Assembly (NCBI GenBank): GCA_963710645.1
Contig: CAVQBD010000002.1
Span: forward strand, 74,828-138,827
From: an uncultured Holophagae bacterium
GTDB taxonomy: Bacteria; Acidobacteriota; Thermoanaerobaculia; Thermoanaerobaculales; Sulfomarinibacteraceae
Reading direction: 5' to 3'
DNA: 64,000 nt
A program made the position numbers and the translations under genes. Below, one piece after another: positions 9,283 to 64,000 of this stretch. Each line of letters begins with the position of its first letter. Position 1 is the first letter of the stretch. The notes beneath the pieces were generated by a model that was not told the DNA's origin, ran no database searches, and saw nothing but the letters and a program-made list of their open reading frames with translations.

Positions 9283-11238
9283 TTAGTCCGGCCGAAGCGT
9301 TCCTGCACTTGGCATCAGGCGGATCGACCAAGAACCTCGGTTTCCGAAATCGAACCCGTCGGAGAAGAGGACCGGCCCTGGTGTTGGGGTTGCCGTCGGG
9401 GTCGCCGTGGGCGTGGGTGTCGACGTCGGTGGAACGGCCGTCCAACTGGGGGTTGGTGTAGGTGATGGCGGCACCGGCGTGCTTGTCCTGGTTGGAGTAG
9501 CCGTTGGTGGAACTGGAGTATTGGTTTGTGTCCTGGTGGCCGTCGGGGTTCGAGTCGGTGTCGGAGAAACCGGCGTGCCTGTGGAAGTTCGGGTTGGAGT
9601 TGGTGGAACCGGTGTGGCGGAGGGAGTTCGGGTTGGAGTTGGTGGAACCGGCGTGGCGGAGGGAGTCCGAGTTGGTGTGGGAGGAACCGGTGTGGCGGAG
9701 GGAGTCCGAGTTGGTGTGGGAGGAGCCGGCGTGGCGGAGGGAGTCCGAGTTGGTGTGGGAGGAACCGGTGTAGCGGAGGGAGTCCGAGTTGGTGTGGGAG
9801 GAACCGGTGTGGCGGAGGGAGTCCGAGTTGGTGTGGGAGGAACCGGCGTGGCGGAGGGAGTCCGAGTTGGAGTTGAGGTCGGTGTTGGCGGAACAGGGGT
9901 ATTTGTTCTGGTGGGCGTCGGGGTCGGTGGAACGGCGGTCGCCGTGGGTGTGGGTGTCGGCACCGGTCCGCTGGCTACTGTGAGGTCCAACTCATAAAGT
10001 TGCGGCATGTCTGACGTGCCGCCTGCAATTTCGAGGTAGTAGGTTCCGTCGCCGCTGGTCAGGGCGATATTCTCGAGGGTTTCAGGGAGTCCCGCGCCGG
10101 TCGCGTCGGAGGACGCCAACTCGGTGGACCCGTTGACATCCAGCACCCGAATACTCAGATCATGGATGGCCAGGGAATCGAAGGGAGTGCCCGAGGAGCA
10201 ACTCCCGCCGGAGTTCTGAGGGCCGCTCAGATAGGTCCCGCCGACAGGGGAGACGGTCACACTGATCGACGCTCCCGAACCGACTGAGAAGCTGAAATCA
10301 TCGATGTCATAGTTGTCATCGATGGACACGTCAAGAATGGCCATCGATCCTGACGGCGATCCGATATGAGTTGATGACGCGGGCGAGTCATTGTGTTCGA
10401 AGAAGTCACCGTAGCCGCGATTCGCGGCCAGGATGTCGTCGTGCTGTGGGCCCTCGAAAGCACCTGAATAGTACGGCTCCATGAGTTTGGTCTGGTTCAC
10501 CGGACAGACGTGCTGCAGACCGATCCCGTGGCCGTGCTCGTGGGAGACCACGTTGCGCAGGCGGATCGAGTTTCCGGAGGTGTTCGAGAAGAAGGAGTCC
10601 CCGGTGTCGATCACCATGTCTCCGATGTTTGGATAAAAGTTGTAGGCGAGGATGCCTGATCCGCCGTCGATGTTGTGACCCGAAATTCGAACGTCGCCGC
10701 GGCCCCCGATCTGGCCCTCGGCGGCGGTGAACGACGCGCCGTCGTCATTCGGCTCGTAGACGTAGGTGATACCCGTGAGTTCCCCCCAACGGTCAAAGAC
10801 CTGCTGGAAAAGGGGGAGCCAATTGGCTTCGTTGCCATAGACGCCGTCTAGGTAGGCACGAAGGTTGCTCGGGGAGTCGGCCTCACCGGCGTAACCCAAG
10901 ATGATGGTGCCGTCGGGAACGATGCTCCAGGTCAGGGTCGTCGGATCGCCCTGGCCGAGGCCGCTGCCGTCGGTTGCAGTCTGAGACCATCGGAGGTAAT
11001 CGGAGAACTGATACTCGGTCTCGGACCCTCCGGACAGGGAGTGATCGAAGCGCGTGAACGACGCCTTTGTGACGGTCTCCTGGATATACCAATCGGGCGT
11101 GCCTGGTTTGAAGCAGAGCACTGGCCCGGAGCCCTGGTTGCAGGCGGCCGGCGATGAGCCGTGCGCGCTCGACGACATGCTGGACAGAAGTGCGATGCAC
11201 CCGATGGTCCCTGCGATGACTGCAAGATTGATCTTCAT
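9283..11238 (-). CDS. Secreted zinc metalloprotease (HExxHxxGxxH, matrixin/M10-like) with a long P/T-rich repeat linker and a short C-terminal motif
   Basis: Signal peptide, zinc site [14 protein letters not shown], a beta-rich domain, then about 190 aa of PT-rich linker that includes about 7 units of [13 protein letters not shown]. Ends in [16 protein letters not shown]. Confidence 0.75.
9583..9890 (-). repeat. 39-bp (13-codon) in-frame tandem repeat inside the protease gene
   Basis: Near-identical units GGGAGTCCGAGTTGGTGTGGGAGGAACCGGTGTGGCGGA start at 9661, 9700, 9739, 9778 and 9817. More diverged units flank them. Confidence 0.9.
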
Positions 11239-15191: not shown

Positions 15192-15363
15192 GGTCTTGGG
15201 GTCTCGAGGTCCTGTGGCCAGACCCCGAGACCTGTTGTTGAAGAAATTCGGAATTCGAAATTCGGAATTCGAAAACCCTCCCACCCGTGTGTGAACAAGG
15301 AATATGGAGCACCGCCGCCCACCCGGGATAGGGAGTCGTTACACGTTCAACGTTAAACGTTAG

Positions 15364-16289
15364 GTTCATCCGGGGAATCGTGAGGTGGGGTTTCTGCGTG
15401 CCCGTCTCCGTGCGGGGATTCAGGCGGCAGGGGCAGCGACGGCAATCAGGGACAGCGTCCGTGATCGGCGGCTGCGTCAGCGATCAGGGGCCGCGGCAGT
15501 GATCAGCTGGGATTGCTCCGGGTTGCGGTCGCTGTCCACCGATACTGCCATCTGCCCCGGACGCCGGTTGCTGTCCCTGTCCCGGCCGCTGCCGACTGCC
15601 GCTGATAGCTGTTCCTCAGAGCGCATCGTGATCACCTCCGGGTCGTTCGCTCGGAGGGAATCGTCGATCTGTCTCCGGATGTCAAGGGCAAGACAAGTCG
15701 TCGGACGACCCTTGACATCCGGAGAAAGATCGACGTCGAGAGAGTTTCATGGACGACCCGGAGGTGATCATGATCGACGCGTGCCAAGGCAACCAACTCA
15801 TCGTCTACGGCAAGGCCATCGAGGCGGCCGGGGAAGCCATCTCCCTCGTCAAACGAGTGCCGGCTCCCGTCAAGAGCCTCGCCGATCAGGTGATCAGATC
15901 GGCGTCATCGGTTCCCGCCAACATTGCAGAAGGCCACGGCCGAACGGGCCGGGATAGACTCCATCATTGGCGAATCGCCTACGGCTCCGCGAAGGAGGTC
16001 GATTGCCATCTTCGCCTCCTGGTTCATGCTGGGGCGATAGACTCCACTCGCGTGGGCGATTCGCTACAGCTCTTCGATCAGGTCCGTGCCATGATCTGGC
16101 GTTTGCTGAACCCAAGGCCCTGATTGGGGCTCCTCGCACGAGCAATTCCGGATGCTGGCGCCGGGTCTACCGCTGGTAGGCTCCGGAACCGCACATGACG
16201 TCGGTGCGATGGAACATCTCGAATATCACATTTCTCATTTCTCATTTCAAATTCAACCACTGCCCATCTCACGGAAATCCGGATGAACC
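15364..16289 (+). repeat. About 0.93-kb unit bounded by imperfect 27-bp inverted repeats
   Basis: Left end GGTTCATCCGGGGAATCGTGAGGTGGG (15364-15390). Right end CCCATCTCACGGAAATCCGGATGAACC (16263-16289), which is its imperfect reverse complement. ACGTT-type short repeats lie just outside both ends. The unit contains module A, nested hairpins and the four-helix-bundle ORF. Module A (15382-15662) is homologous to 52621-52835 and, inverted, to 63645-63891. Confidence 0.8.
15749..16123 (+). CDS. Four-helix-bundle protein (23S rRNA intervening-sequence protein family; same fold family as DGR Avd)
   Basis: 124 aa with family-typical segments (IRSASSVPANIAEGHGR ... AYGSAKEVDCHLRL). The family assignment is from memory of this family's conserved NIAEG and E..yhL pattern. 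Confidence 0.75.
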   Translation: MDDPEVIMIDACQGNQLIVYGKAIEAAGEAISLVKRVPAPVKSLADQVIRSASSVPANIAEGHGRTGRDRLHHWRIAYGSAKEVDCHLRLLVHAGAIDSTRVGDSLQLFDQVRAMIWRLLNPRP

Positions 16290-16496
16290 AAACGTTAAAG
16301 GTCCGGACATCTCGACGTCTGATGAGGACCCCTAATATTAACGTGTAACGTTCAACGTTGAACTTCGCCGAGTCCCGAGTCCCGAGTCCCGGGTTCGGTG
16401 CTGATGTTCGGGACGGGCTGGGGGGGTCGACATTCGACATTCGACATTACCTTTCGACCGGCTGGGCTGGCGGGCTACCGCCCACCGCCTGCTACC

Positions 16497-18430: not shown

Positions 18431-18533
18431 TCCCCGCCCACCCGCATGCCCGGAGAGGAACAAGGAACAAGGATCAAGGAACAACCCCCACCCGACCGGT
18501 TGGCGGGGATCAGGGGGTAGGGAGCAGAGTGAG

Positions 18534-18986
18534 ATGCCGATTCTGGTGGACGGCAATAACCTGCTGTTTCGGCTGCCTAGGGGGTCGCGGTCCCGTGCCG
18601 AGGTGCGCCGTCTGGTATTGGAGACGACTCGCCATGAACGGATGGCGGTGGTGGTGGTCTTCGACGGACCGCCTCCGGCAGGTTCGCCGGCCGCGGAATC
18701 TCTGGGGTCGGTGACGGTGGTTTACGCGGGCGCAGCCATCGCCGACGACGTCATCATCAAACGACTGCCGTCGGGCCGCGCGGCCGGCCAGTGGGTGGTC
18801 GTTACCGATGATCGGGCTTTGGCCGACCGAGCCCGGCAACGCGGAGCATCCGTCCGCGGGATCGCCGAGTGGCAAAGCAAACGCCAGCCGACACCGAAAC
18901 GGGTTTCCAGGGAACCAAGGCTCTCGTCCAACGAGGTTCGAGAGTGGGAGGAGTTTTTCTCCAGCGACGGCACCAGCGACGATTGA
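18534..18986 (+). CDS. NYN/PIN-like (YacP-type) predicted RNA-binding or ribonuclease protein
   Basis: MPILVDGNNLL ... VVVFDG ... DDVIIKRL ... VVVTDDRAL pattern. Start trimmed to ATG 18534. Confidence 0.6.
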   Translation: MPILVDGNNLLFRLPRGSRSRAEVRRLVLETTRHERMAVVVVFDGPPPAGSPAAESLGSVTVVYAGAAIADDVIIKRLPSGRAAGQWVVVTDDRALADRARQRGASVRGIAEWQSKRQPTPKRVSREPRLSSNEVREWEEFFSSDGTSDD

Positions 18987-19303
18987 CGACACCTTCTGGT
19001 CCGTGAGCCACCGACCGTTGAGTTGAGAATCAAGAGTCAAGAGTCGAAGGTTGTCCTGGCCACTGGCCACTCGCTGGTGACGGCTGGTCACCGCGGCCGG
19101 AGGCCGCGAGTAACCGCGGCGAACGCGGTCCGAAAATTGGCGCCACGAGTGTCACCGAACCGCCCGCAGACTGCCAATAATGTCTGGGTCTGTGAGCCGC
19201 AAGCCGTGAGGCGCGAGCCTCGCAAACGGGGATCTTCGTTCTTGGTTCTTCGATCTTCGTTCAGGTGGGCGGGTGGGGGATCCGGCATCCGGCCGGGTGG
19301 GGG

Positions 19304-20863
19304 TCAGCTTCCCCGCTGCTGGTGGGCGCGACGGAGGAGACGTTCGAGTTCCCGTTTGCCGACCAATTCCTTGTACATCTGCTTGGCGCGGGGGTTGTCC
19401 GGATCGGCACCGAGGGCCTTCTCCAGCGCTTTGCGTTCGCGCTCGGAATTGCGGCGGCGTCGCCAGAACAATGCCAGCTCCAGCCAAGCATCGATGTAGT
19501 CCGGATCGATTTCGATGGCTCGCCTCATGCAACCGAGGGCGCGGTTGGTCCACAGCGGGTTGCGCAGGAGGAGTTGCGACAGCTTGACCAGTTCCTTCGG
19601 CCGGGGGTCAAGCTTGCAGGCGTGCTCGAGAAGTTGAATTGCGAGATAGAACTCGCCTTCGCGGATCAGCTCGTCGGCCCGTTTGACGTTGGCCTGGACG
19701 ATAGCGCTGCGGGCATCGACGTTGGCCGCCACGCGACCCTCAGTTTCCTCCACCAGGTCTTCCCGTTCGTGCTCGACCTCGGCCAGGATCTTGTCGTAGC
19801 GTTCCCGGTTCTTCCAGTCGGAGAGCACCTGGTGGGCTTCCACGGCACGCTCGTAGATCGCGTCGAGTTCCGGTTTGAGGTCGCGGAGCCAGGCGTCCTT
19901 GCGCAGCTCCGTCGAGTACCGTTCCTTGATGCGTTGCAGGGCCCGGTTGATCTCGTCCCGGTCGGCGCCCTGCCGGAGGCCGAGGGCGCCATAGTGGTCG
20001 GTGCGGCGTGCTTCCTCGGCGAGCCGCCTGATGTTCTGGCGCTCCTGGCGTTGAATTTCGCCAATGGTTTCTTCGTCCACCGGTCTCGGTTGGTTCGAGG
20101 TCGGCTCCTTGGACTTCTTTTTCGACGGCTGGGAGGGCCCCTCGGCCTCGGCGAGCGTCACCACCCCGGCCACCAGCAGCGGATACAGGGTTGCGATCGC
20201 CTGCTCGTCGGGCAGAGCCGATACCTGGAACAGATTCGAAATGGTGCGCGCGCCCTCGAGTCGGCTGATCAGGAATCCTTCGGTAGGGGTGAGGTTGTAG
20301 TCCTGCAAGAGGTGATCGATCTCTCGCGACCGGCTGACCAGTTGGTTGAGAGAGCCGAGGGCGGTGAGCTTGGCCTTGTGGTCGTCGCACGCGCGGGCCG
20401 CGATCAAGATGATCTGCGATGTGAAGAGATTGGGCAAGGTGTCCGGTTGGTCCGGATTCTGTCCATCCAGAAACTCGTAGAACAGAGCCGGTTCGGCTGC
20501 GGACCTGCGAATAATGGCCAGAGTGAGTTCCTGCAACTCAGCTTCCAGGGTGGAACCATCCAGACAGCCGCGCGTCACAAGGAGGTGTCCCAGAGGAGGG
20601 GCGTTTTCGCCGCCCTGGGACAGCAAAGACAATGCGCGGTCGTCTTCGCTGATCTTGCCCCTATCCACAAGCCACATGCCGAGCTTCTCTTCTTCGGACG
20701 ACGATCGCGCGGCACGAATTTCACCGTTGACCCAGAGGATCTCGCGTCGCGCGCCATCGGTGGCTGTCGCCAGAACACCGGTCGCGGTTTGGTTGGCGAG
20801 TCGTGCCATGTGGCTCGGTAACGCGGTGCTTGTCTCCAGCCGGGTCGCCTCGTCACCGCTCAT
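19304..20863 (-). CDS. DUF4388-like N-domain + J-like domain (no HPD) + TPR protein
   Basis: N-terminal segment GVLATATDGARREILWVNGEI. J-like helix pattern DHYGALGLRQGADRDEINRALQRIKERYSTELRKD, with STE where HPD is expected. C-terminal TPR-like helices. Confidence 0.6.
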   Translation of the reverse strand: MSGDEATRLETSTALPSHMARLANQTATGVLATATDGARREILWVNGEIRAARSSSEEEKLGMWLVDRGKISEDDRALSLLSQGGENAPPLGHLLVTRGCLDGSTLEAELQELTLAIIRRSAAEPALFYEFLDGQNPDQPDTLPNLFTSQIILIAARACDDHKAKLTALGSLNQLVSRSREIDHLLQDYNLTPTEGFLISRLEGARTISNLFQVSALPDEQAIATLYPLLVAGVVTLAEAEGPSQPSKKKSKEPTSNQPRPVDEETIGEIQRQERQNIRRLAEEARRTDHYGALGLRQGADRDEINRALQRIKERYSTELRKDAWLRDLKPELDAIYERAVEAHQVLSDWKNRERYDKILAEVEHEREDLVEETEGRVAANVDARSAIVQANVKRADELIREGEFYLAIQLLEHACKLDPRPKELVKLSQLLLRNPLWTNRALGCMRRAIEIDPDYIDAWLELALFWRRRRNSERERKALEKALGADPDNPRAKQMYKELVGKRELERLLRRAHQQRGS

Positions 20864-22111: not shown

Positions 22112-22188
22112 GGGAGGTTAGCTCAGCTGGTTAGAGCACCTGCCTTACACGCAGGGGGTCGTGGGTTCGAATCCCCCACCTCCCACCA
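22112..22188 (+). tRNA. tRNA-Val (anticodon TAC)
   Basis: Cloverleaf folded by hand. Acceptor GGGAGGT/ACCTCCC, anticodon arm CCTGC-CTTACAC-GCAGG, T-loop TTCGAAT, encoded CCA. Confidence 0.9.
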
Positions 22189-22212: not shown

Positions 22213-22289
22213 GGGGTCGTAGTTCAGTTGGTTAGAACGCAGGCCTGTCACGCCTGAGGTCGCGAGTTCGAGTCTCGTCGGCCCCGCCA
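22213..22289 (+). tRNA. tRNA-Asp (anticodon GTC)
   Basis: Acceptor GGGGTCG/CGGCCCC, anticodon arm CAGGC-CTGTCAC-GCCTG, T-loop TTCGAGT, discriminator G, encoded CCA. Confidence 0.9.
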
Positions 22290-29701: not shown

Positions 29702-30030
29702 CCCCCGCCCGCCCGATCCAAGATGCAAGATTCCCCGCCCGGCCGGAACATCAGCTCGGGACTCGGGACTCGGGACTCGGGCCCCGTCCCAGCCGGATAC
29801 GAGATGCGAGATCCGAGATACATGATCCCGCGCCCACCCGGAGAGGGATAAGCGCGATGGGCGGGCGTGCCAGGGGTGGCTCCCTCGGGGAGCGCGGTTG
29901 GGAGATGGGCGCGTCGGAGTCAGCAATTCGAAGCGAACGCGCGGGTCGGTGCCCGGCGCCGACTCGCACCTGCCACACCCTCTACACTTTCTACACCCTC
30001 TCCACCGGGCGCGCGGGTGTGGGGGATAAT
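29702..30030 (-). repeat. Mosaic intergenic repeat copy lacking the hairpin
   Basis: Heptamer tracts (CGGGACT)x4 around 29755-29785 and (CGAGATN)x3 around 29797-29820. C-box 29824-29841. Module C (reverse complement) 29852-29871 directly abuts module B (reverse complement) 29883-29912. GTGTAGA-type repeats around 29975-30005. Confidence 0.8.
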
Positions 30031-39059: not shown

Positions 39060-39158
39060 TCCGTGAAGGCCGGAGTTGGTCCGGGTTCCAAGTTCCGCGT
39101 TCCGGGTTGATACTCAGGGCGGGTGGGGGTTCGAATTTCTAATTTCGAATTCTCCGGG

Positions 39159-41655: not shown

Positions 41656-41707
41656 GTGCCTCGCTTCCTTCGTTCGCGGCTAGTGATGATAACGGCCCCG
41701 GGTGAAT

Positions 41708-41796
41708 ATGTGAAATGTGAAATAAAATTCTGGCAACCCCCCACGCCCGAGCGAATGGCTGGAGTTCATTGGCGATTTCAATTTCACATTTCACAT
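41708..41796. repeat. Heptamer-built 16-bp perfect inverted repeat with a C-box-containing loop, in a divergent promoter region
   Basis: ATGTGAAATGTGAAAT (41708-41723) faces ATTTCACATTTCACAT (41781-41796). The 57-nt loop contains CAACCCCCCACGCCCGAGCG. It ends 5 nt before the ATG at 41802. Confidence 0.85.
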
Positions 41797-41801
41797 TTGT
41801 C

Positions 41802-44419: not shown

Positions 44420-45911
44420 TCTGCTCCAACTCGCGGAGCTCGCCCTGGCCGGTCATGTCAGTCCACAGCTCGTCGAGGATCTTCTGAGGGCGGTGGTTGA
44501 AGACTCCGGCTCGAGAGCCGGGGTGTTCCGCCGGGCGGATGAAGTTGAGGCGCGGTGGCCGAGGACAGTGTCGGCCCAGGTGGAAGAGGCCACCGACGGG
44601 TGGACCGAGGTGCCCTTCGGATCTGACCACGGCGCGTGGTGTCTTCGGCTATTGCAGCCGGAGCGACTCGACGAAGGGGTGCTCGGCGCCGCCCGAATTG
44701 TGCTGCGCTCCATGGCCCTCAGGGACGAACTCAAGCGGACACGCTTTGATGAGCGGTTCCACCTCTGGGAGCTGGAGACCATTCGCTCCATCGCCTCGGA
44801 CATCGGCGGCATCCTCGAGGTTTCCGGGATTTCCCAGGAGCTCATCAACCACCTGGTGGCCCTGCTGGGCGTTCGCTCGGCCCAAATCTACCTCGGTGTT
44901 GACGCCGATCAGGCGGAGATCACCGGGGGGTTCGGGCCCGAGGTGCTGGATTCGGGTCAGCAGGCACACGCCTGGCGGCAGGGTCTCTACTCCGACGACG
45001 TGGTAGCTCTGCCTCTTCAGTCGGAGAAGGGAACTCTCGGAATCCTGGTGGCGGCGCACAAGGAGGCTCGGGCTGGGACCGAGGCCTTCGCCGGCAACGA
45101 TGTCCGGCTCTTGGAGCTCTTCGCCATCCAGGTCACCATGGCCCTGGATTTCGCTCGGCTGACGCAGGAGTCCCTCGAGAGGGAGCGCCTGAGGCGCGAA
45201 CTCGAGGTGGCGGCCGAGATCCAGTCCCACCTCTACCCGCAGGAATTTCCTCAGTTCGAGGGTTTCAGGCTGGCGGCCAGGTCTCTGCCGAGCCGGCACG
45301 TGGCTGGAGACACCTACGATGTTCTGTTGGACAGGGGCCATCTCATTGCCACGGTCACCGATGTGTCGGGTAAGGGCGTCGGGGCGGGCATGATCGCTGC
45401 CGGAATCCACTCCGCTGTGCGGCTGCTGTCGGAAACCGAGGGGTCGCTCGACGGACTGGCAATGCGGATCAATACCTACCTGGCAGGAGCCACTGAGGAC
45501 AACCGGTTTGCCACCTTTGCCATGGTCCGCTTGGCTCCCGACGGTCGTCTGACGGCGGTGAACGCCGGCCACTGCCCGGTGTTGATCAGGAGACGGGACG
45601 GCACCATTGAACAGATCCAGTCCAGCGGCCTGCCGCTGGGAATTTTGGAAGCCGCCCGGTACACCCAGTCGGTCAGCCAGCTCGATCCCGGCGATCTGCT
45701 GCTGCTTTATACCGATGGTCTCACCGAGGCGGAGAACCCTGCGGAAGAGGAGTTCGGAGTCCCTCGAGTGGAGCAGGCGGTGGCGGTCTTGGACGATCCC
45801 ACTGCCGAGTCTTCCTGCGGCGATCTCATGCGCGCGGTGAATGAGTTTGCCTGCGGCAAGCCGCTGGTTGATGACGCGACGCTGCTCGTTGTTGAACGTC
45901 TTTCCGAGTAG
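44406..45911 (+). CDS. GAF + PP2C (SpoIIE/RsbU-like) serine phosphatase
   Basis: GAF region followed by PP2C motifs (VAGDTYDV ... VTDVSGKGVGAG ... LLLYTDGLTEA ... DDATLLVVER). Overlaps the end of the STAS gene by 14 nt. Confidence 0.8.
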   Translation: MPRGDLLQLAELALAGHVSPQLVEDLLRAVVEDSGSRAGVFRRADEVEARWPRTVSAQVEEATDGWTEVPFGSDHGAWCLRLLQPERLDEGVLGAARIVLRSMALRDELKRTRFDERFHLWELETIRSIASDIGGILEVSGISQELINHLVALLGVRSAQIYLGVDADQAEITGGFGPEVLDSGQQAHAWRQGLYSDDVVALPLQSEKGTLGILVAAHKEARAGTEAFAGNDVRLLELFAIQVTMALDFARLTQESLERERLRRELEVAAEIQSHLYPQEFPQFEGFRLAARSLPSRHVAGDTYDVLLDRGHLIATVTDVSGKGVGAGMIAAGIHSAVRLLSETEGSLDGLAMRINTYLAGATEDNRFATFAMVRLAPDGRLTAVNAGHCPVLIRRRDGTIEQIQSSGLPLGILEAARYTQSVSQLDPGDLLLLYTDGLTEAENPAEEEFGVPRVEQAVAVLDDPTAESSCGDLMRAVNEFACGKPLVDDATLLVVERLSE

Positions 45912-45917
45912 TAACAA

Positions 45918-46047
45918 GCGAATAGTAAATAGTAAATAGTGAATAGTAAATAGTGAATAGTGAATAGTGAATAGTGAATAGTCCCCCTCCCGCCCACCAC
46001 GATCGTGGGGAGCACTTACTATTCGCTATTCACTATTCGCTATTCAC
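45918..46047. repeat. Heptamer microsatellite hairpin between convergent genes
   Basis: (RAATAGT)x9 at 45918-45982 faces (ACTATTC)x4 at 46016-46047, with about 28 of 30 positions paired. The loop carries CCCCCTCCCGCCCACC and the 12-bp palindrome CCACGATCGTGG. Confidence 0.9.
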
Positions 46048-46073
46048 TTTGCGGGCTACAGCCCGAACAGACC

Positions 46074-48508: not shown

Positions 48509-48718
48509 AATCTCTTCCAAGCGAGCCGCCGTGTCAAGTGTCCCGCCCGTCCACCCGCCAACCCGGATGCTCGATGCTGGATACTGGATGCTCGATCCGC
48601 CACCCACCCGGATACGAGATACGAGATCCCCCGCCCACCCGGGGAGGGGTGGGAGAAGAGGTGGGGAATTCACCATTGCCGAGGCTTGACAAGAAACCCA
48701 GGTGACCGATCATCTCGG

Positions 48719-48861
<143 letters not shown>

Positions 48862-50365: not shown

Positions 50366-50590
50366 CCGGGTTCCGAAAAAGTCGGTGCCAGGCACCTCCG
50401 AGAGAAGCATCTTTCTCCCCATGCGCTCCCCGAGGGAACCACCCCTGACACTTTTCGGGACTCATGGATTTGGAGAAGAGCCTCGATGCGATCAACCCGA
50501 AAGTGTCAGAAGTGGCACGCCCGCCCGTCGCGCCCTCTCGCTTCGGGTGGGCGGGCAGCGTTGCTGTCTACTGTTTACTGCCAACTGCCT
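50366..50590 (+). repeat. Mosaic intergenic repeat copy between convergent genes
   Basis: GTTCCGG GTTCCGA at 50366-50379. Module B core 50421-50437. Hairpin 50445-50459/50496-50509. Module C 50514-50534. G-box 50544-50555. CTACTGT-type heptamers at 50565-50590 run into the 3' end of the symporter gene. Confidence 0.8.
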
Positions 50591-52217
50591 GGCTGGGTGG
50601 GGGATTCGGAAACAGGAAACTCACCGCCACGGCGGCACCTGCCGCCAGGAAAAACGCCGGAACCAGCTCGTAGAGGAAGTGGAGTCCCCATTGTTGCACC
50701 AGCCACCATGACGTCAGGGTGAGGGCTGCGGCGGCGAGGGTGGCTGCGCTGTGACCCACATCGAATGAGTCGGTGATGCGCCCGATGATCAGAATGGTCG
50801 CGGCCAAGACGATCACCGCCCATGGCACTTTGGCAAATGCCTCAGGACTCTCCGCCGCCGTTCGCCCCAGCTTCCAGGCCACGGTCACGCCGACGCCGGT
50901 CAGCATGCCCGCGAGCGCACCGAAGCGACTCATCTTGGTGTCGAAGGCCGCGAACAGCACCAGGGGAGCGAAGGCTGCCCCAAGCCCGGACCACGCGAAA
51001 AGTACGAACCAGAACACGAGCCTGACCTCGGTCAGGGCGACCAGGACACCGAGGATGCCGATCACCACCACCGTCCAGCGGCCCAGGCGAAGGCTGCGCC
51101 GATCGTCGGTCTCACGGCCAAGGGTCTCCTCGACGATGTCATAGGAGACCGCCGATGCCGCCACCAAAAGTTGCGACGAAACAGTGGACAAAATGGCCGA
51201 GATTACGGCAGCCAGAAGCAGGCCCGCGAGGACCGGGTGGACGAGCTCGAGGGCCATCACCATCAGGGCCTGCTCGCCATCTGCCAGAGTGGGCAGCATG
51301 ACCCGTGCCGCCAGGCCCACCAGCCCGGCGCCGTAGAAGACGGCGATGCCCCACAGCATGGCGATCACTTTGAGGCGCCGGATTTCGGTCTGAGATTTCG
51401 TGGCCATGTAGCGGGTCACCACGTGCGGCATGCCCGGATAGCCGAGGCCGATGCCGAGCTCACCAACGATGAACCCCCACAGGGCGGGTCCGACCCGGTC
51501 TCCGCCGACGGTCAATAGGTGGGGGTCGATGGCCCCGAGTCCGTTGATCAGAGCACCAAACCCGCCGAGCCGGGCGATGGCATACAGCGGCAGGGCGATC
51601 AGGGCGAGCGCAACGAGCAGGCCTTGGAAAAGGTCGGTCCAGGCCACGGCGCGGAATCCGCCCATGAAGGTGACCGTGATAATGACCAGGGCACCGATCA
51701 TGACACCGAGCAGGTAGCCGGAACGGCCCTCCATCCCCAGACTCGACGAGAACGCCTTGCCGGCGGCGGTCATCTGGGCCGCGACATAGCCCAACATGCA
51801 GACCAGAATGATGGTGGTGGCGGTCACTCTGAGCACGTTGTGGGGGTCGCCCCAGCGGCGGGTGATCACATCGGTCATGGTGATCGAACCTTGCTGTGCC
51901 GACAGCTTTCGAAGCCGCGGGGCCACAACGTACAGGTTCACCAAATAGCCCAGCAGGCAGCCTGGCGCATACCACAGGCCTGCGAGGCCATGGGTGTAGG
52001 TCATCCCCACCGCGCCGAGGGTCACCCAGCCGGATTCTGAGCTTGCGGTGGAGGAGATCCCCGCTGCCCACGCTCCGAGCGATCGTCCGGCCAGGTGGAA
52101 GTCTTCGCCGCCGTGGGTGCGCCGACCGGCGCGCCAGCCGATGATCAGGAGGATGCCCAGATAGACCACCATCACCGCGCCGACGGTTGAGATCGTCGAA
52201 GGAGTGAGGGCGGTCAT
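50568..52217 (-). CDS. Sodium:solute symporter (SSS) family transporter
   Basis: 549 aa with about 13 TM helices and an SSS-type N-terminal region (HLAGRSLGAWAAGISSTASSESGW). Confidence 0.85.
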   Translation of the reverse strand: MTALTPSTISTVGAVMVVYLGILLIIGWRAGRRTHGGEDFHLAGRSLGAWAAGISSTASSESGWVTLGAVGMTYTHGLAGLWYAPGCLLGYLVNLYVVAPRLRKLSAQQGSITMTDVITRRWGDPHNVLRVTATTIILVCMLGYVAAQMTAAGKAFSSSLGMEGRSGYLLGVMIGALVIITVTFMGGFRAVAWTDLFQGLLVALALIALPLYAIARLGGFGALINGLGAIDPHLLTVGGDRVGPALWGFIVGELGIGLGYPGMPHVVTRYMATKSQTEIRRLKVIAMLWGIAVFYGAGLVGLAARVMLPTLADGEQALMVMALELVHPVLAGLLLAAVISAILSTVSSQLLVAASAVSYDIVEETLGRETDDRRSLRLGRWTVVVIGILGVLVALTEVRLVFWFVLFAWSGLGAAFAPLVLFAAFDTKMSRFGALAGMLTGVGVTVAWKLGRTAAESPEAFAKVPWAVIVLAATILIIGRITDSFDVGHSAATLAAAALTLTSWWLVQQWGLHFLYELVPAFFLAAGAAVAVSFLFPNPPPSQAVGSKQ

Positions 52218-52336
52218 TCTCCGGCCCTATTGCGCAGAGTTTCGCGAGCGGCGCTGACAGCGACGATCAGGGTCAGGGCGAGGGGGAAGCCCCACAACAG
52301 GAGGTGGGCGCCAAGAGTCAGGGAGTGCTCTTCCAT
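52214..52336 (-). CDS. Candidate 40-aa hydrophobic peptide coupled to the symporter
   Basis: Product MEEHSLTLGAHLLLWGFPLALTLIVAVSAARETLRNRAGE. Its stop overlaps the symporter ATG (ATGA). Small membrane ORFs upstream of SSS genes are a known arrangement. Not in the track because it is under 60 aa. Confidence 0.45.
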   Translation of the reverse strand: MEEHSLTLGAHLLLWGFPLALTLIVAVSAARETLRNRAGE

Positions 52337-52384
52337 ATCGTCAAGCCTACCAGCGTTGTCCGCTGGTGGTCAGGTCGCGCATTT

Positions 52385-53146
52385 CGAAATTCGATGTCCC
52401 CCAACCCACCCATGAGTCCAATGTCCAAAGTCGAAAGTCGAAAGTCGCCATCACCCACCCGACACGGCTGGGGCTTTGCTCTCGGGGCCCCTTGTCGATA
52501 CCAGGTGCCGCCACGGACACTGCAATCTCGCTGGGTTCAATCTACCGAATTTCGAAGCGCCGATTCTCCGACCGCGCTCCCCGTGAGGATGGGAAGGAAC
52601 TTTCAACGTTTGGTTCATCCGGGAAAGCGTGAGGTGGGGTTTCTGCGTGCCCGTCTCCGTGTGCGAAACAGCGACGGCAATCAGGGACAGCGTCCATGAT
52701 CGGCGGCTGCGTCAGCGATCGGGGGCCGCGGCAGTGATCAGCGGCGATTGCCCCGGATTGCGGTCGCTGTTCACCGATGCTGCCATCTGTCCCGGACACC
52801 GGTTGCTGTCCCTGCCCCGGCCGCTGCCGACTGCCCGTGACGCGGATTGCTGGCGCGGACGCTGACGCCGGAATCCGGGCCCCCGCGTTCGCTTCGATGC
52901 ACTGACTTCGACGCGCCCATCTTCCAACCGCGCTCCCCGAGGTTGCCCCCTTTAACATTGTTGGGACCTCAACGAGGTGGATTTCTCAATGCCTTGAATC
53001 CCAACAATGTTAAAGACGGCACGCCCGGTCAACGCGCCCTCCCCGCCACCGGGTGGGCGGGTGGCAAGGTTCAACGTTTAACGTGCAACTCTCATCAACG
53101 GCACGCCCGCCTATCGCGCCCCCGTTCCGGGCGGGTTGGTGGGTGC
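52385..53146 (+). repeat. Largest mosaic intergenic repeat array
   Basis: In order: (AGTCGAA)x3 around 52430-52450; left-end motif GGTTCATCC at 52612; module A 52621-52835; module B 52913-52942; 16-bp perfect hairpin 52951-52966/52999-53014; module C 53018-53038; G-box 53049-53064; a second module C 53100-53120; a second G-box 53128-53146. Confidence 0.85.
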
Positions 53147-53174
53147 TAAACTCCGGCGACTCGAAGGAGGAGCT

Positions 53175-54059
53175 ATGTCGCGGCGGATTTTGCTGACTGT
53201 GATGGTGGTTGCGATGGTCGCCGGTCCGGCGACCGCGGAGGATACGGCAGGTCCATTTCACGTGATGGTGGCCAATGACGACGGCATCGACGCGCCGGGC
53301 ATCGCGGCGATCGTCAAGGAGTTGGCAGCGGATCCGAGCTACCGCGTGACCGTGGTGGCGCCGGCCGAGCAGCAGAGTGTCACCAGCCATTCTCACGTGA
53401 CCAGACGCGAGGTTCCCGTGCGGCCCCATGCTCCGATGTCCGGGGCCACGGCGTGGTCGGTGGACGCCACCCCGGCGTCTGTGGTCCGCATTGGCCTGAC
53501 CGCGGTGCTCGCCGACGATATGCCCGATCTCGTGGTGTCGGGCATCAACCTGGGCGAAAATAATGGTCTGGGCGCATGGACCTCCGGGACCGTGGGAGCG
53601 GCTCGTGAAGCCCTTCTGGTGGGGGTGCCCAGTATTGCGCTGTCGCTGCAGCTCGACTGGGACGATCCGCAACCAGACTTCGAGACGGCGGCCCGGTGGT
53701 GCAAGCCGATCATAGATGCTGTCCGGCAGGACGGCCTGCCGAGAGGGGTCCTGCTAAACGTCAACGTGCCGCGAGACACCGAGGCCATCCGCGGCTACCG
53801 GTTGGCGCGAATGGGTCTGACCCCTCCGGAAATTGCGCGTTTCGACCTGGTTCGAACTGAAGACGGAACCACGTGGTACCGCAGCCGCTGGCGGCCTGCG
53901 CCCACGGCGGAGGCGGGAACCGACACCCGCGCCCTGCTCGATGGCTGGGTCGCGATAGCGCCCATCGGCCTGGATCAGACGGATTACAGTTCGTTCCCGT
54001 TGATTCAGGGCCTCGAAGAGGCCGTCATTCCGGCCGTCAGCACCGTTGGAATTCCCTGA
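53175..54059 (+). CDS. surE: 5'/3'-nucleotidase SurE with an N-terminal signal peptide
   Basis: SurE motifs (VANDDGIDAPGI, SGINLGENNG, SGTVGAAREA) preceded by MSRRILLTVMVVAMVAGPATAED. GAAGGAGG lies upstream of ATG 53175. Confidence 0.8.
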   Translation: MSRRILLTVMVVAMVAGPATAEDTAGPFHVMVANDDGIDAPGIAAIVKELAADPSYRVTVVAPAEQQSVTSHSHVTRREVPVRPHAPMSGATAWSVDATPASVVRIGLTAVLADDMPDLVVSGINLGENNGLGAWTSGTVGAAREALLVGVPSIALSLQLDWDDPQPDFETAARWCKPIIDAVRQDGLPRGVLLNVNVPRDTEAIRGYRLARMGLTPPEIARFDLVRTEDGTTWYRSRWRPAPTAEAGTDTRALLDGWVAIAPIGLDQTDYSSFPLIQGLEEAVIPAVSTVGIP

Positions 54060-63536: not shown

Positions 63537-63542
63537 GGCATG

Positions 63543-64000
63543 ACGTATGAGGTATGAGGTATGGAGGGTGGAAGGCGAGTACAGACGGTTACAGGTCATT
63601 CGATATTCGAAAATTCCATCGCACCGGCCTCGTGTGCATTTTTGGATTCCCTCCCAGCGAACGACCCGGAGGTGATCACGACGCGCTCCCAGGTACAGCG
63701 ATCAGCGGCAGTCGGCAGCGGCCGGAACAGGGACAGCGACCGGTGTCCGGGGCAGATGGCGGCATCGGTGATGGGCGACCGCAATCCGGGGCAATCCCAG
63801 CTGATCACCGCCGCGGCCCCTGACTGCTGCCTCTGATTGCTGTTCCCGGCCGCTGTCCCTGAACGCCATCGCCGCCGCTGCCATTCGGGCACGGGCGTTC
63901 GCCTCGATTCGTTGACTGAGACGCGCCCATCTCCCAACCGCGCTCCCCGAGGGAGCCCCCCTTAACATCGCTGGGACCTCAATGAGGTAGATTCCCCAAT
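63543..64000. repeat. Mosaic repeat copy truncated by the window end
   Basis: (GAGGTAT)x3 at 63545-63565. Module A in reverse orientation (63645-63891). Module B forward (63923-63952). Left hairpin arm TTAACATCGCTGGGA at about 63962-63976; the right arm is beyond the window. Confidence 0.8.

Follow-up and report, generated by a model that had tools for sequence, protein, structure and literature searches.

What are the repeats that fill the long gaps between genes in an uncultured Holophagae bacterium of the Acidobacteriota? The question is posed by a stretch of 64,000 nucleotides (contig CAVQBD010000002.1, positions 74,828 to 138,827, forward strand; hereafter the window), in which intergenic regions, among them the focal region 52385-53146 upstream of the SurE gene, are built from the modules X, linker, B-hairpin-C, G-box (C-box on the opposite strand), short tandem arrays, A, and T, combined differently at each locus. 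Analysis of the window and of related metagenome loci suggests, with a probability of about 0.55, that the repeat units are a lineage-wide, composite, non-autonomous selfish DNA of the REP/BIME-REPIN type (repetitive extragenic palindrome; bacterial interspersed mosaic element; REP doublet forming a hairpin) in uncultured Thermoanaerobaculales-type Acidobacteriota.

The repeat unit and its copies in the window

An earlier reading of the window, made from the sequence only, had treated B and C as separate modules with a hairpin between them. Alignment of the copies revealed that B, hairpin, and C are one object, an irregular hairpin of approximately 130 nt at whose foot part of B (CGAGG..GCC) is paired with C (GGC.ACG.CCCG). 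A conserved linker (GCGTTCG.TTCGA…CGCGCCCATCTCCC) lies upstream of B, and C is followed by N5-CGCGCC, about 10 nt, the G-box CCGGGTGGGCGGGG, and a short array of a 6-7-nt unit. The 5' to 3' order in full copies is X doublet, linker, ~130-nt hairpin, a small GC hairpin with the G-box, and three to five 6-7-nt units; blocks of C/G-box plus array can be stacked. The small GC hairpin ends in the G-box, which can pair with CGCCCGCCC of C via G-T/G-U wobble, and this wobble lies on the + strand (CCCGCCC with GGGTGGG). Covariation in the C/G-box hairpin was sought by eye, and the box appears conserved as sequence. At least three unit subtypes are told apart by their flanks, type-2 copies sitting between inverted hexamer arrays, (CCGYNN)n … (NNRCGG)n. 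A sigma-54 promoter in C (TGGCACG) was considered and ruled out, the obligatory GC ten bases past GG being missing in every subtype.

A strict pattern that joins B and C across the hairpin (GCGCTCCCCGAGGNNNCCNCC-N50-80-GCACGCCCG, 26 specified bases) matched the window three times versus 0 expected from 100 shuffles, which establishes the modular mosaic of intergenic repeats as real. The modules were recovered by self-comparison, by a box list, and by R1, a covariance model of the unit core, where the sequence-only reading had placed them. R1 gave six oriented copies in the window; the units and half unit are numbered U1 to U6. In the focal region, U4 (52908-53041, +; 123 bits, E 4e-25; RNA fold z = −4.6) comprises the B foot GCGCTCCCCGAGG, a stem-loop (52949-53015), and the C foot GGCACGCCCG-N5-CGCGCC. 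It is preceded by the linker (…GGCCCCCGCGTTCGCTTCGATGCACTGACTTCGA; 52860-52907, +), which is found upstream of B in type-1 units with a conserved upstream consensus and belongs to a repeat family, D5, with 81% identity to 63870-64000. Downstream of U4 follow the G-box GGGTGGGCGGGTGG and a degenerate AACGTT-type heptamer array (53049-53099, +; sequence and box list), and then the half unit U5 (53100-53146, +), a C foot plus G-box approximately 30 nt upstream of the SurE start codon (53175); the C plus G-box half-unit sequence spans 53075-53146.

The region of U1 (1405-1632, −; R1, Tandem Repeats Finder [TRF], and sequence) consists of the core (1458-1590, 109 bits) flanked by (CGAAGAA)3.9 plus C-box (1409-1449) and (CGGAAA)3.5 plus G-box (1593-1632). 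At 29702-29963 (−), U2 (29848-29917, 65 bits) is devoid of the hairpin and is accompanied by an X arm with two mismatches (29945-29963) and by four boxes alternating with three different heptamer arrays (29702-29841). The U3 region (50381-50610, +) holds an X arm (50381-50399), U3 itself (50402-50537, 97 bits), a G-box (50545-50555), and array-like sequence that runs into the end of a symporter gene. At 63540-64000 (+), (ATGAGGT)3.4 plus G-box, an inverted and internally deleted gene cassette (63614-63882, see below), and a linker precede U6 (63918-64000, 23 bits), which is truncated by the window end. The B-bearing segments 1527-1587, 29874-29945, 52860-52990, and 63870-64000 were 79-89% alike in self-comparison.

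Distribution among metagenomes

In a metagenome collection, the strict pattern matched at least 120 contigs, whose samples came from sediment, wetland, and sludge, and R1 detected further, non-exact copies, with up to three strong matches per 12-kb locus. As controls served 114 mostly unrelated, high-GC loci obtained with a looser pattern (17 specified bases), whose matches are mostly due to chance; one of them, L006, was rejected as a chance match within an aconitase gene. Strong R1 matches among these controls (74-118 bits) were confined to metagenome-assembled genomes (MAGs) labelled 'uncultured Holophagae' or 'Candidatus Sulfomarinibacteraceae', i.e. Acidobacteriota, Thermoanaerobaculales, and the two other matches (below 35 bits) look like chance. 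A 65% homologue of the SurE encoded in the window is labelled Thermoanaerobaculales. A planctomycete (Isosphaeraceae) host, which GC content and heptamers had seemed to suggest, was rejected in view of these labels.

Two tRNA genes (22112-22185 and 22213-22286) were the sole Rfam matches in the window at the gathering threshold. For 52300-53200, Rfam returned only sub-threshold miRNA noise at E values up to 10, and it gave no match in 11 related loci, in line with the initial impression that the modules belong to no named family. Searching plasmids by blastn yielded no match to the modules, and the literature that could be searched contains no account of these elements. The unit family is previously undescribed and is present in many uncultured sediment Acidobacteria. 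There is next to no chance that faulty or chimeric assembly of this one contig produced the copies, a concern raised with the first description: the units recur in several MAGs and in at least 120 independent metagenome contigs, which cover many samples and assemblers, and the relative L239 (see below) has them at syntenic positions.

Structure of the core and placement of the units

The B-hairpin-C core measures 93-100 nt between the feet. In the stem the sequence varies and pairing is kept; the B and C feet are conserved, their invariance in the alignments being partly by construction, since both positions were prescribed by the search pattern. Among 85 distinct cores, 96.4% of the cells in proposed pairs were standard pairs versus 87.5% in shuffled and 34-49% in slid controls. 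Both sides had changed in 195 cells versus 64 in shuffles, none of 500 shuffles attaining the observed count, with the covariation counts being inflated by subfamily inheritance (few events, many copies). Example pair columns are U-A 46 / C-G 30, A-U 44 / G-C 40, and U-A 40 / C-G 39. The hairpin is therefore under selection as structure.

A hairpin of this kind might act as RNA. The units would then be co-transcribed terminators or protectors of mRNA 3' ends, or a multi-copy small RNA, and the pyrimidine-rich arrays could be unstructured protein-binding tracts, e.g. for Rho loading. The strong compensatory change in the stem, the high conservation of the B, C, and G-box sequences, and the G-U wobble on the + strand required by the C/G-box hairpin are all in favor of such a role, and one array is located exactly past a conserved promoter-like TTGACA-16-GATCAT, hence in a 5' leader. 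However, wobble counts gave no clear strand (7 G-U on the + strand versus 10-30 C-A), Rfam contains no match, and no consistent promoter or U-tract terminator is attached to the units; canonical T-run terminators occur at two neighbouring gene ends.

The placement of the units bears on both readings. Almost all are intergenic (123 of 131), with 22 in convergent versus eight in divergent gaps, and the gene 5' of the unit has the direction of the unit in 56 cases and the opposite one in 34; the convergent excess and the co-directional 5' gene would suit an RNA element; the occurrence of 19 sense and 16 antisense units between genes of the same direction would not. Clustering of the ORFs flanking the units revealed no enriched protein family. 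Being intergenic, in both orientations, with a convergent excess and without an enriched neighbour family, the units behave as dispersed DNA rather than as a cis-regulator.

Turnover at orthologous loci

Two syntenic relatives, L239 and L240 (SurE 85% and 83% identical, respectively), were compared with the window gap by gap. In the gap between amt and the sodium:solute symporter (SSF) gene, the window has half an X and a full unit, L239 a full X and a hairpin-less GCGCTCC-agaac-GGCACGCCCG, and L240 is empty (78 nt). Upstream of SurE, C plus G-box (U5) and the AACGTT/AACTTT array are kept in all three genomes, the array orthologous to 53049-53099 being of the AACTTTC type in L239 and of the AACGTTC type in L240. 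The B foot and hairpin of U4 are present in the window and L239 and absent in L240; conversely, a block of ATCTYGC array plus second G-box, adjoining U5 in L239 and L240, is absent in the window. Approximately 480 nt of box/array, B-like, T, and A sequence in the same gap are found in the window only. They include the stack at 52385-52462 (+), with a C-box (52399-52412), (AGTCGAA)~4.7 (52415-52447), and a second C-box (52448-52462) identified from sequence, TRF, and the box list, which has no counterpart in the orthologous gap of either relative. The TetR-amt gap contains two blocks of array plus C-box in the window versus one each in L239 and L240, and the gap downstream of the Big_7 gene, more than 513 nt in the window, comprises 199 nt in L239 with none of the modules found at 63540-64000. 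Over the whole syntenic stretch, three full units and a half unit in the last ~21 kb of the window compare with one copy above the R1 threshold in L239 (20.9 kb) and none in L240 (8.6 kb).

Units, hairpins, and cassettes of G-box plus array are gained and lost independently at orthologous loci. Furthermore, cores that are 99% identical, loop included, were found between flanks of just 57-70% identity, and the cores therefore move separately from their flanks. The repeats also reach gene ends, and the sequence-only reading had noted two cases of this. The symporter terminates in SQAVGSKQ* in the window (50568-50610), in GQAVGSEQ* in L239 (7755-7800), and in QPDVGRG* in L240 (2053-2095), and in both unit-carrying genomes it is apparently the array of the repeat that provides the last ~7 codons and the stop. 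A G-box-like run encoding PNPPP in the same gene belongs to the native coding sequence and is conserved in the window, L239, and L240. Presence or absence of units at orthologous loci with the neighbouring genes retained speaks against the functional RNA discussed above, and taken with the placement data we consider that role unlikely, though deserving of attention.

Module X and a RAYT-like transposase

Module X, which had escaped the sequence-only reading, consists of two inverted copies of the 13-nt perfect palindrome GGTGCCWGGCACC, exactly 54 nt apart (GTCGGTGCCAGGCACC-N41-GGTGCCTGGCACCGGCCCGCG), an arrangement like that of REPINs. Its arms, palindromes of 13-17 nt, occur 34 times in 860 kb of related loci, and doublets with the exact 54-nt spacing were found at 10 loci. 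These include three doublets within the 21 kb of L239 (3253-3319, 7604-7670, and 9590-9656), each 5' of a unit or unit remnant; the matching places in the window have single arms only, and the two arms of the window (29945-29963 and 50381-50399) are both single. In at least 10 type-1 units, X stands directly 5' of linker and B.

The likeness to BIMEs had led to the proposal of looking for a RAYT (REP-associated tyrosine transposase) gene, and a Y1/RAYT-like gene with X-like flanks was indeed found in relatives. A motif screen of all fetched loci identified a 365-aa ORF with a Y1_Tnp domain (Pfam PF01797, E 1.8e-5) in L165, which stems from the sample that also contains the closest relatives. 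It matched NCBIfam NF047646, 'REP-associated tyrosine transposase', with an E value of 1e-19 and 70.5 bits, below the cut-off of 80, and homologues have been named RayT by JGI; none of the best 120 homologues could be attributed to the source genome. The gene is located at 2956-4053 in L165, at 579-1607 in L243 (85% homologue), and at 10001-10975 in L244 (58% homologue), and it adjoins ksgA in L165 and L243. It is flanked by GGTGCCAGGGCCGAC / GTCGGCCCTGGCACC, with 2+2 copies in L165 and L243 and 1+1 in L244; this repeat has the 11-mer CCTGGCACCGG in common with X and is identical to the X arm at 14 of 17 positions. Upstream of the gene in L243, hexamer arrays and module-A-like sequence were observed.

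As the window itself is devoid of a transposase, the involvement of RayT is inferred from relatives. In this model, a HUH Y1 transposase of the RayT type, encoded by the host, would copy or move the units by way of hairpins in single-stranded DNA, and recombination or slipped replication among the many short G-boxes, arrays, and palindromes would account for the reshuffling, gain, and loss of modules. Where neighbouring genes acquire a new stop codon, a changed 5' leader, or possibly a hairpin at the 3' end, these effects would probably be by-products.

Several observations weigh against selfish DNA of this type. The window contains no transposase, and the focal region 52385-53146 is entirely devoid of X arms. 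The repeat flanking the RAYT-like gene is similar, not identical, to the dispersed X arm, and the 21 kb of L244, in which this flanking repeat is kept, contain none of X, B, C, and G-box and no R1 match. Neither at the empty site of L240 nor at module junctions was a target-site duplication found, and no sharp right-hand boundary was detected either. Compensatory change in the hairpin fits an RNA role equally well, and the inflation of the covariation counts and the partly built-in invariance of B and C have to be taken into account here, too. Finally, B, C, and G-box are conserved in sequence across apparently several genera, which exceeds the expectation for selfish DNA in decay and could point to a function in the host.

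The four-helix-bundle cassette

The region 15247-16289 had been assigned to the same mosaic by the sequence-only reading. It contains neither B nor C; it is a cassette around a four-helix-bundle gene and the source of modules A and T (15243-16448, +; defined by PF05635, TIGR02436, fold, repeats, and TRF). Its eight parts are an array with C-boxes (15243-15326), an AACGTT array with T-left (15337-15412), module A (15426-15610), a leader stem (15620-15777), the PF05635 coding sequence (15749-16123), (CATTTCT)3 (16229-16248), T-right (16263-16302), and arrays with a G-box (16338-16448). The cassette is situated between genes for an aldehyde dehydrogenase and a sigma-54 activator, and its own gene encodes 124 aa (PF05635, E 6e-20; also TIGR02436). 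The cassette ends are formed by inverted T of approximately 40 nt, T-left (15349-15390) pairing with T-right (16263-16302). In the leader, the start codon and the initial ~27 nt of the gene pair with a stretch upstream to form a stem of ~28 bp, which encloses a 27-bp hairpin (15662-15735); the fold of the 441-nt stretch has a z value of −8.8, and compensatory differences were observed in relatives, those of the inner hairpin in L115. A comparable fold-back of the start codon is known from insertion sequences (IS), where it silences read-through translation. The protein has 3745 homologues at E ≤ 0.001, and at least 10 paralogues with 92-98% amino acid identity were attributed to the source genome, in which the gene is multi-copy.

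Parts of this cassette lie in the focal region, where 52598-52850 represents its left end with the gene missing. T (52598-52661, +) is the inverted-repeat end, with 92% identity to 15349-15412 and 80% complementarity to 16263-16302 in self-comparison; T copies at 81-88% occur in the metagenome loci L158, L207, L213, and L237. Module A (52669-52850, +), an imperfect long palindrome of ~19-nt repeats (TRF period 19), corresponds to the leader segment: 52669-52840 is 92% identical to 15434-15605, the reverse complement of 63645-63829 (185 nt) matches module A at 89%, and a homologue is present in L127. Module A is thus repeated in the window (89-92%), as originally described; it is not a free-standing module, but the structured leader of the PF05635 cassette. 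Upstream of T, the B-like module GCGCCGATTCTCCGACCGCGCTCCCCGTGAGG (52551-52590, +; repeat family D10 in self-comparison) is a degenerate unit start covered by a weak R1 match (52552-52654, 19 bits). Together with the inverted, internally deleted copy at 63614-63882, these findings identify A and T as parts of a second, co-located repeat, the PF05635 cassette, whose gene-less deletion derivatives sit in the same gaps as the units.

The nucleic-acid-binding, Avd-like protein of this cassette might itself, in place of RayT, be the factor that drives the mosaic, with hairpins, G-boxes, and arrays as its binding or attachment sites and as decayed cassette ends. The multi-copy gene with its closely similar paralogues, the IS-like combination of inverted T ends and a buried start codon, the gene-less internal-deletion copy beside U6, and the arrays and G-boxes that also bracket the cassettes of relatives are consistent with this idea. 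T was also read by eye as resembling the 3' part of the unit, but this similarity is weak. Moreover, a 124-aa helical bundle has no known strand-transfer chemistry, most units have no such gene nearby (tblastn gave one fragment in 120 loci), and L115, L116, and L118 possess the gene without a unit. A driving role of the cassette is therefore quite improbable.

G-boxes and short tandem arrays

Short tandem arrays are a regular companion of both repeats. TRF reported 69 rows in the window, about 30 of them with a period of 7 and with more than 20 different heptamer units. In 762 kb of related DNA, 7 was again the commonest period (306 of 1246 rows; 122 canonical heptamer units), and recurrent units were AACGAAG (21), AAATTCG (17), AATTCTC (14), AGATCC(C/T) (20), and AATCTGC (8). 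The arrays had been regarded as locus-specific; this view has to be revised, as the same heptamers recur in other genomes and form orthologous arrays. A box lies within 15 nt of 12 of the 31 short arrays versus 1.0 for random placement over the whole window, a control that overstates the enrichment because boxes and arrays are both largely intergenic.

Further combinations of this kind were identified from TRF and the box list. A box-array-box arrangement (18431-18497) is located within a same-strand gene pair and is followed by arrays and two G-boxes (19026-19305; whole region 18431-19305, no strand assigned), which finish on the stop codon of the DnaJ/TPR gene, a second case of an element running into a gene end. 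At 39080-39152 (+) the G-box GGGCGGGTGGGGG is enclosed by two arrays. Between convergent genes, inverted arrays (GAATAGT)9 and (CTATTCG)4 surround a C-box (45906-46053, no strand assigned; self-comparison and TRF), and the orthologous gap in L239 holds an X doublet instead. At 48540-48861 (+), a stack of two C-box/array blocks and a C-box precedes the promoter-like TTGACA-16-GATCAT (48686-48713), which is kept in the window, L239, and L240 with a heptamer array directly 3': (TGCCTAC)~21 in the window (48686-48861 with the promoter-like site), (CTGCTCC)~18 in L239 (5930-6080), and (CTGCTCC)~8 in L240 (420-495). Position and period are kept here, and unit and copy number change; the array may act as an expression-tuning leader.

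Side observations concern three of these arrays. Those at 45906-46053, placed between the convergent genes of a SpoIIE phosphatase and an AMP-binding protein, could form a long hairpin. At 41702-41798, a C-rich box is surrounded by the inverted heptamer arrays (GTGAAAT)3 and (ATTTCAC)3, just upstream of a gene starting near 41769. A longer tandem repeat at 9401-9925 (39-nt unit, ~8 copies, 91% matches) lies within the gene of a matrixin/PPC protein (9283-11238, minus strand) and represents a 13-residue coding repeat with a local GC skew of 0.33.

Blocks of G-box plus 6-7-nt array might be cassettes made or inserted at G-boxes by an active, site-specific process rather than by passive slippage; this could involve RayT-type cleavage and rejoining, or a process with an Avd-like four-helix-bundle protein. 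Such a process would account for the 7-nt period, the length of 3-5 units, the fact that arrays are always bounded by the same box, the gain and loss of whole array-plus-box blocks between close relatives, and the replacement of the unit at an unchanged site. We regard this proposal as doubtful; if true, it might explain the heptamer repeats of cyanobacteria and giant sulfur bacteria as well.

Alternatively, the boxes could be sites for a host DNA-binding or nucleoid protein, or G-quadruplex/i-motif switches, and the repeats would persist by organising chromosome or transcription. BIMEs bind integration host factor and gyrase. The conservation of the G-box as sequence without covariation, and its recurrence beside arrays and in relatives, would agree with a protein site, and the G-box GGGTGGGCGGGTGGGGG and its C-strand are candidate G-quadruplex and i-motif sequences. 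The sequence-only reading had assumed four G-runs in the box; a few boxes have four (e.g. 19264-19283), but the typical box has three, and G-quadruplex or i-motif formation is pure speculation. As boxes are, in addition, gained and lost between close relatives, and as the long hairpin and X are left unexplained, a persistence of the repeats through such functions of the boxes is very improbable. Selfish DNA of the REP/BIME-REPIN type remains the preferred interpretation.

Comparison with known systems

The results add a large, well-defined repeat family to the Thermoanaerobaculia, barely studied sediment Acidobacteria, and provide a covariance model and module boundaries. The repeats swell intergenic DNA, rewrite gene ends, and alter 5' leaders (8 to 21 heptamer copies), which is relevant to annotators of MAGs. 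Should the modules prove to act as RNA or as binding sites for proteins, the conserved motifs B, C, and G-box would be ready probes. A REPIN/RayT-type module is joined in this family to a long hairpin with covariation, to a conserved G-box, and to heptamer arrays, and the family may therefore help to understand how REP-like mosaics arise and what heptamer tandem repeats do.

Modular intergenic repeats, or hairpins of ~100-150 nt, are also represented by pneumococcal BOX (boxA-boxB(n)-boxC), enterobacterial repetitive intergenic consensus (ERIC), and Neisseria Correia elements, which are non-coding, have variable internal modules, and are often co-transcribed with their neighbours. Their sequences and hosts are unrelated to those described here, and they are not known to have heptamer arrays, a G-box, or an associated RayT. 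The PF05635 cassette resembles the intervening sequences in 23S rRNA genes of Leptospira and Coxiella, in which a small PF05635 gene is bracketed by stem-forming inverted repeats. In contrast to these, it is situated between protein-coding genes in a window without rRNA, is multi-copy, and has a long structured leader (A) and gene-less derivatives.

Cyanobacterial short tandemly repeated repetitive sequences (STRR) and the TAACTGA repeats of Beggiatoaceae are likewise short intergenic arrays with a 7-nt period, in which the unit occurs from a few to some tens of times close to the start or end of genes (PMC4679880). There, one or few fixed heptamers occur per genome; here there are dozens, usually attached to a G/C-box, and orthologous arrays keep place and period and change the unit (TGCCTAC versus CTGCTCC). 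Acidobacteria harbor TIRtrons (TIRYT), in which an IS200-like Y1 transposase is associated with terminal inverted repeats, some of them double, and with related dispersed repeats (PMC3733652). The phylum is the same, but the hosts of TIRtrons are Acidobacteriia (Koribacter, Terriglobus), not Thermoanaerobaculia; their motif GGGGWSAS is missing from the flanks of the RAYT-like gene, and no composite units or arrays were described for them (PMC3733652).

The closest functional parallel is provided by the REP/BIME and REPIN-RAYT systems of E. coli and Pseudomonas (Di Nocera et al. 2013, PMC3733652). Both they and the units are high-copy extragenic hairpin repeats in mosaics, enriched near gene 3' ends, and in both a short palindrome occurs as inverted doublets, represented here by X with its 54-nt spacing. 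The relatives also possess a single RAYT-like Y1 gene at a conserved chromosomal site with related repeats as flanks. The likeness to BIME/REP proposed by the sequence-only reading accordingly holds for the layout, the extragenic position, and the excess in convergent gaps. It does not extend to sequence or size: a GTAG/CGTC tag is missing, the stem being preceded by CGAGG(TT/GA)GCC and X by (CAT)GTCGG (CGTC precedes B only in some type-3 copies), and the main unit is an irregular hairpin of ~130 nt (core ~95-130 nt) versus a REP palindrome of 20-40 nt. Modules follow a fixed order with direct stacking, in contrast to the alternating orientation in BIMEs; heptamer arrays and G-box belong to the element itself; X and the repeat beside the RAYT-like gene are not identical; and the RAYT homologue, at 70.5 bits, stays below the NCBIfam equivalog cut-off. 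The units work like REP/BIME-REPIN systems, yet fail the defining sequence features of REPs (GTAG tag, 20-40-nt size), and the family is set apart from them by its obligatory G-box and heptamer arrays, by the long hairpin with its covariation, and by its link to the PF05635 cassette.

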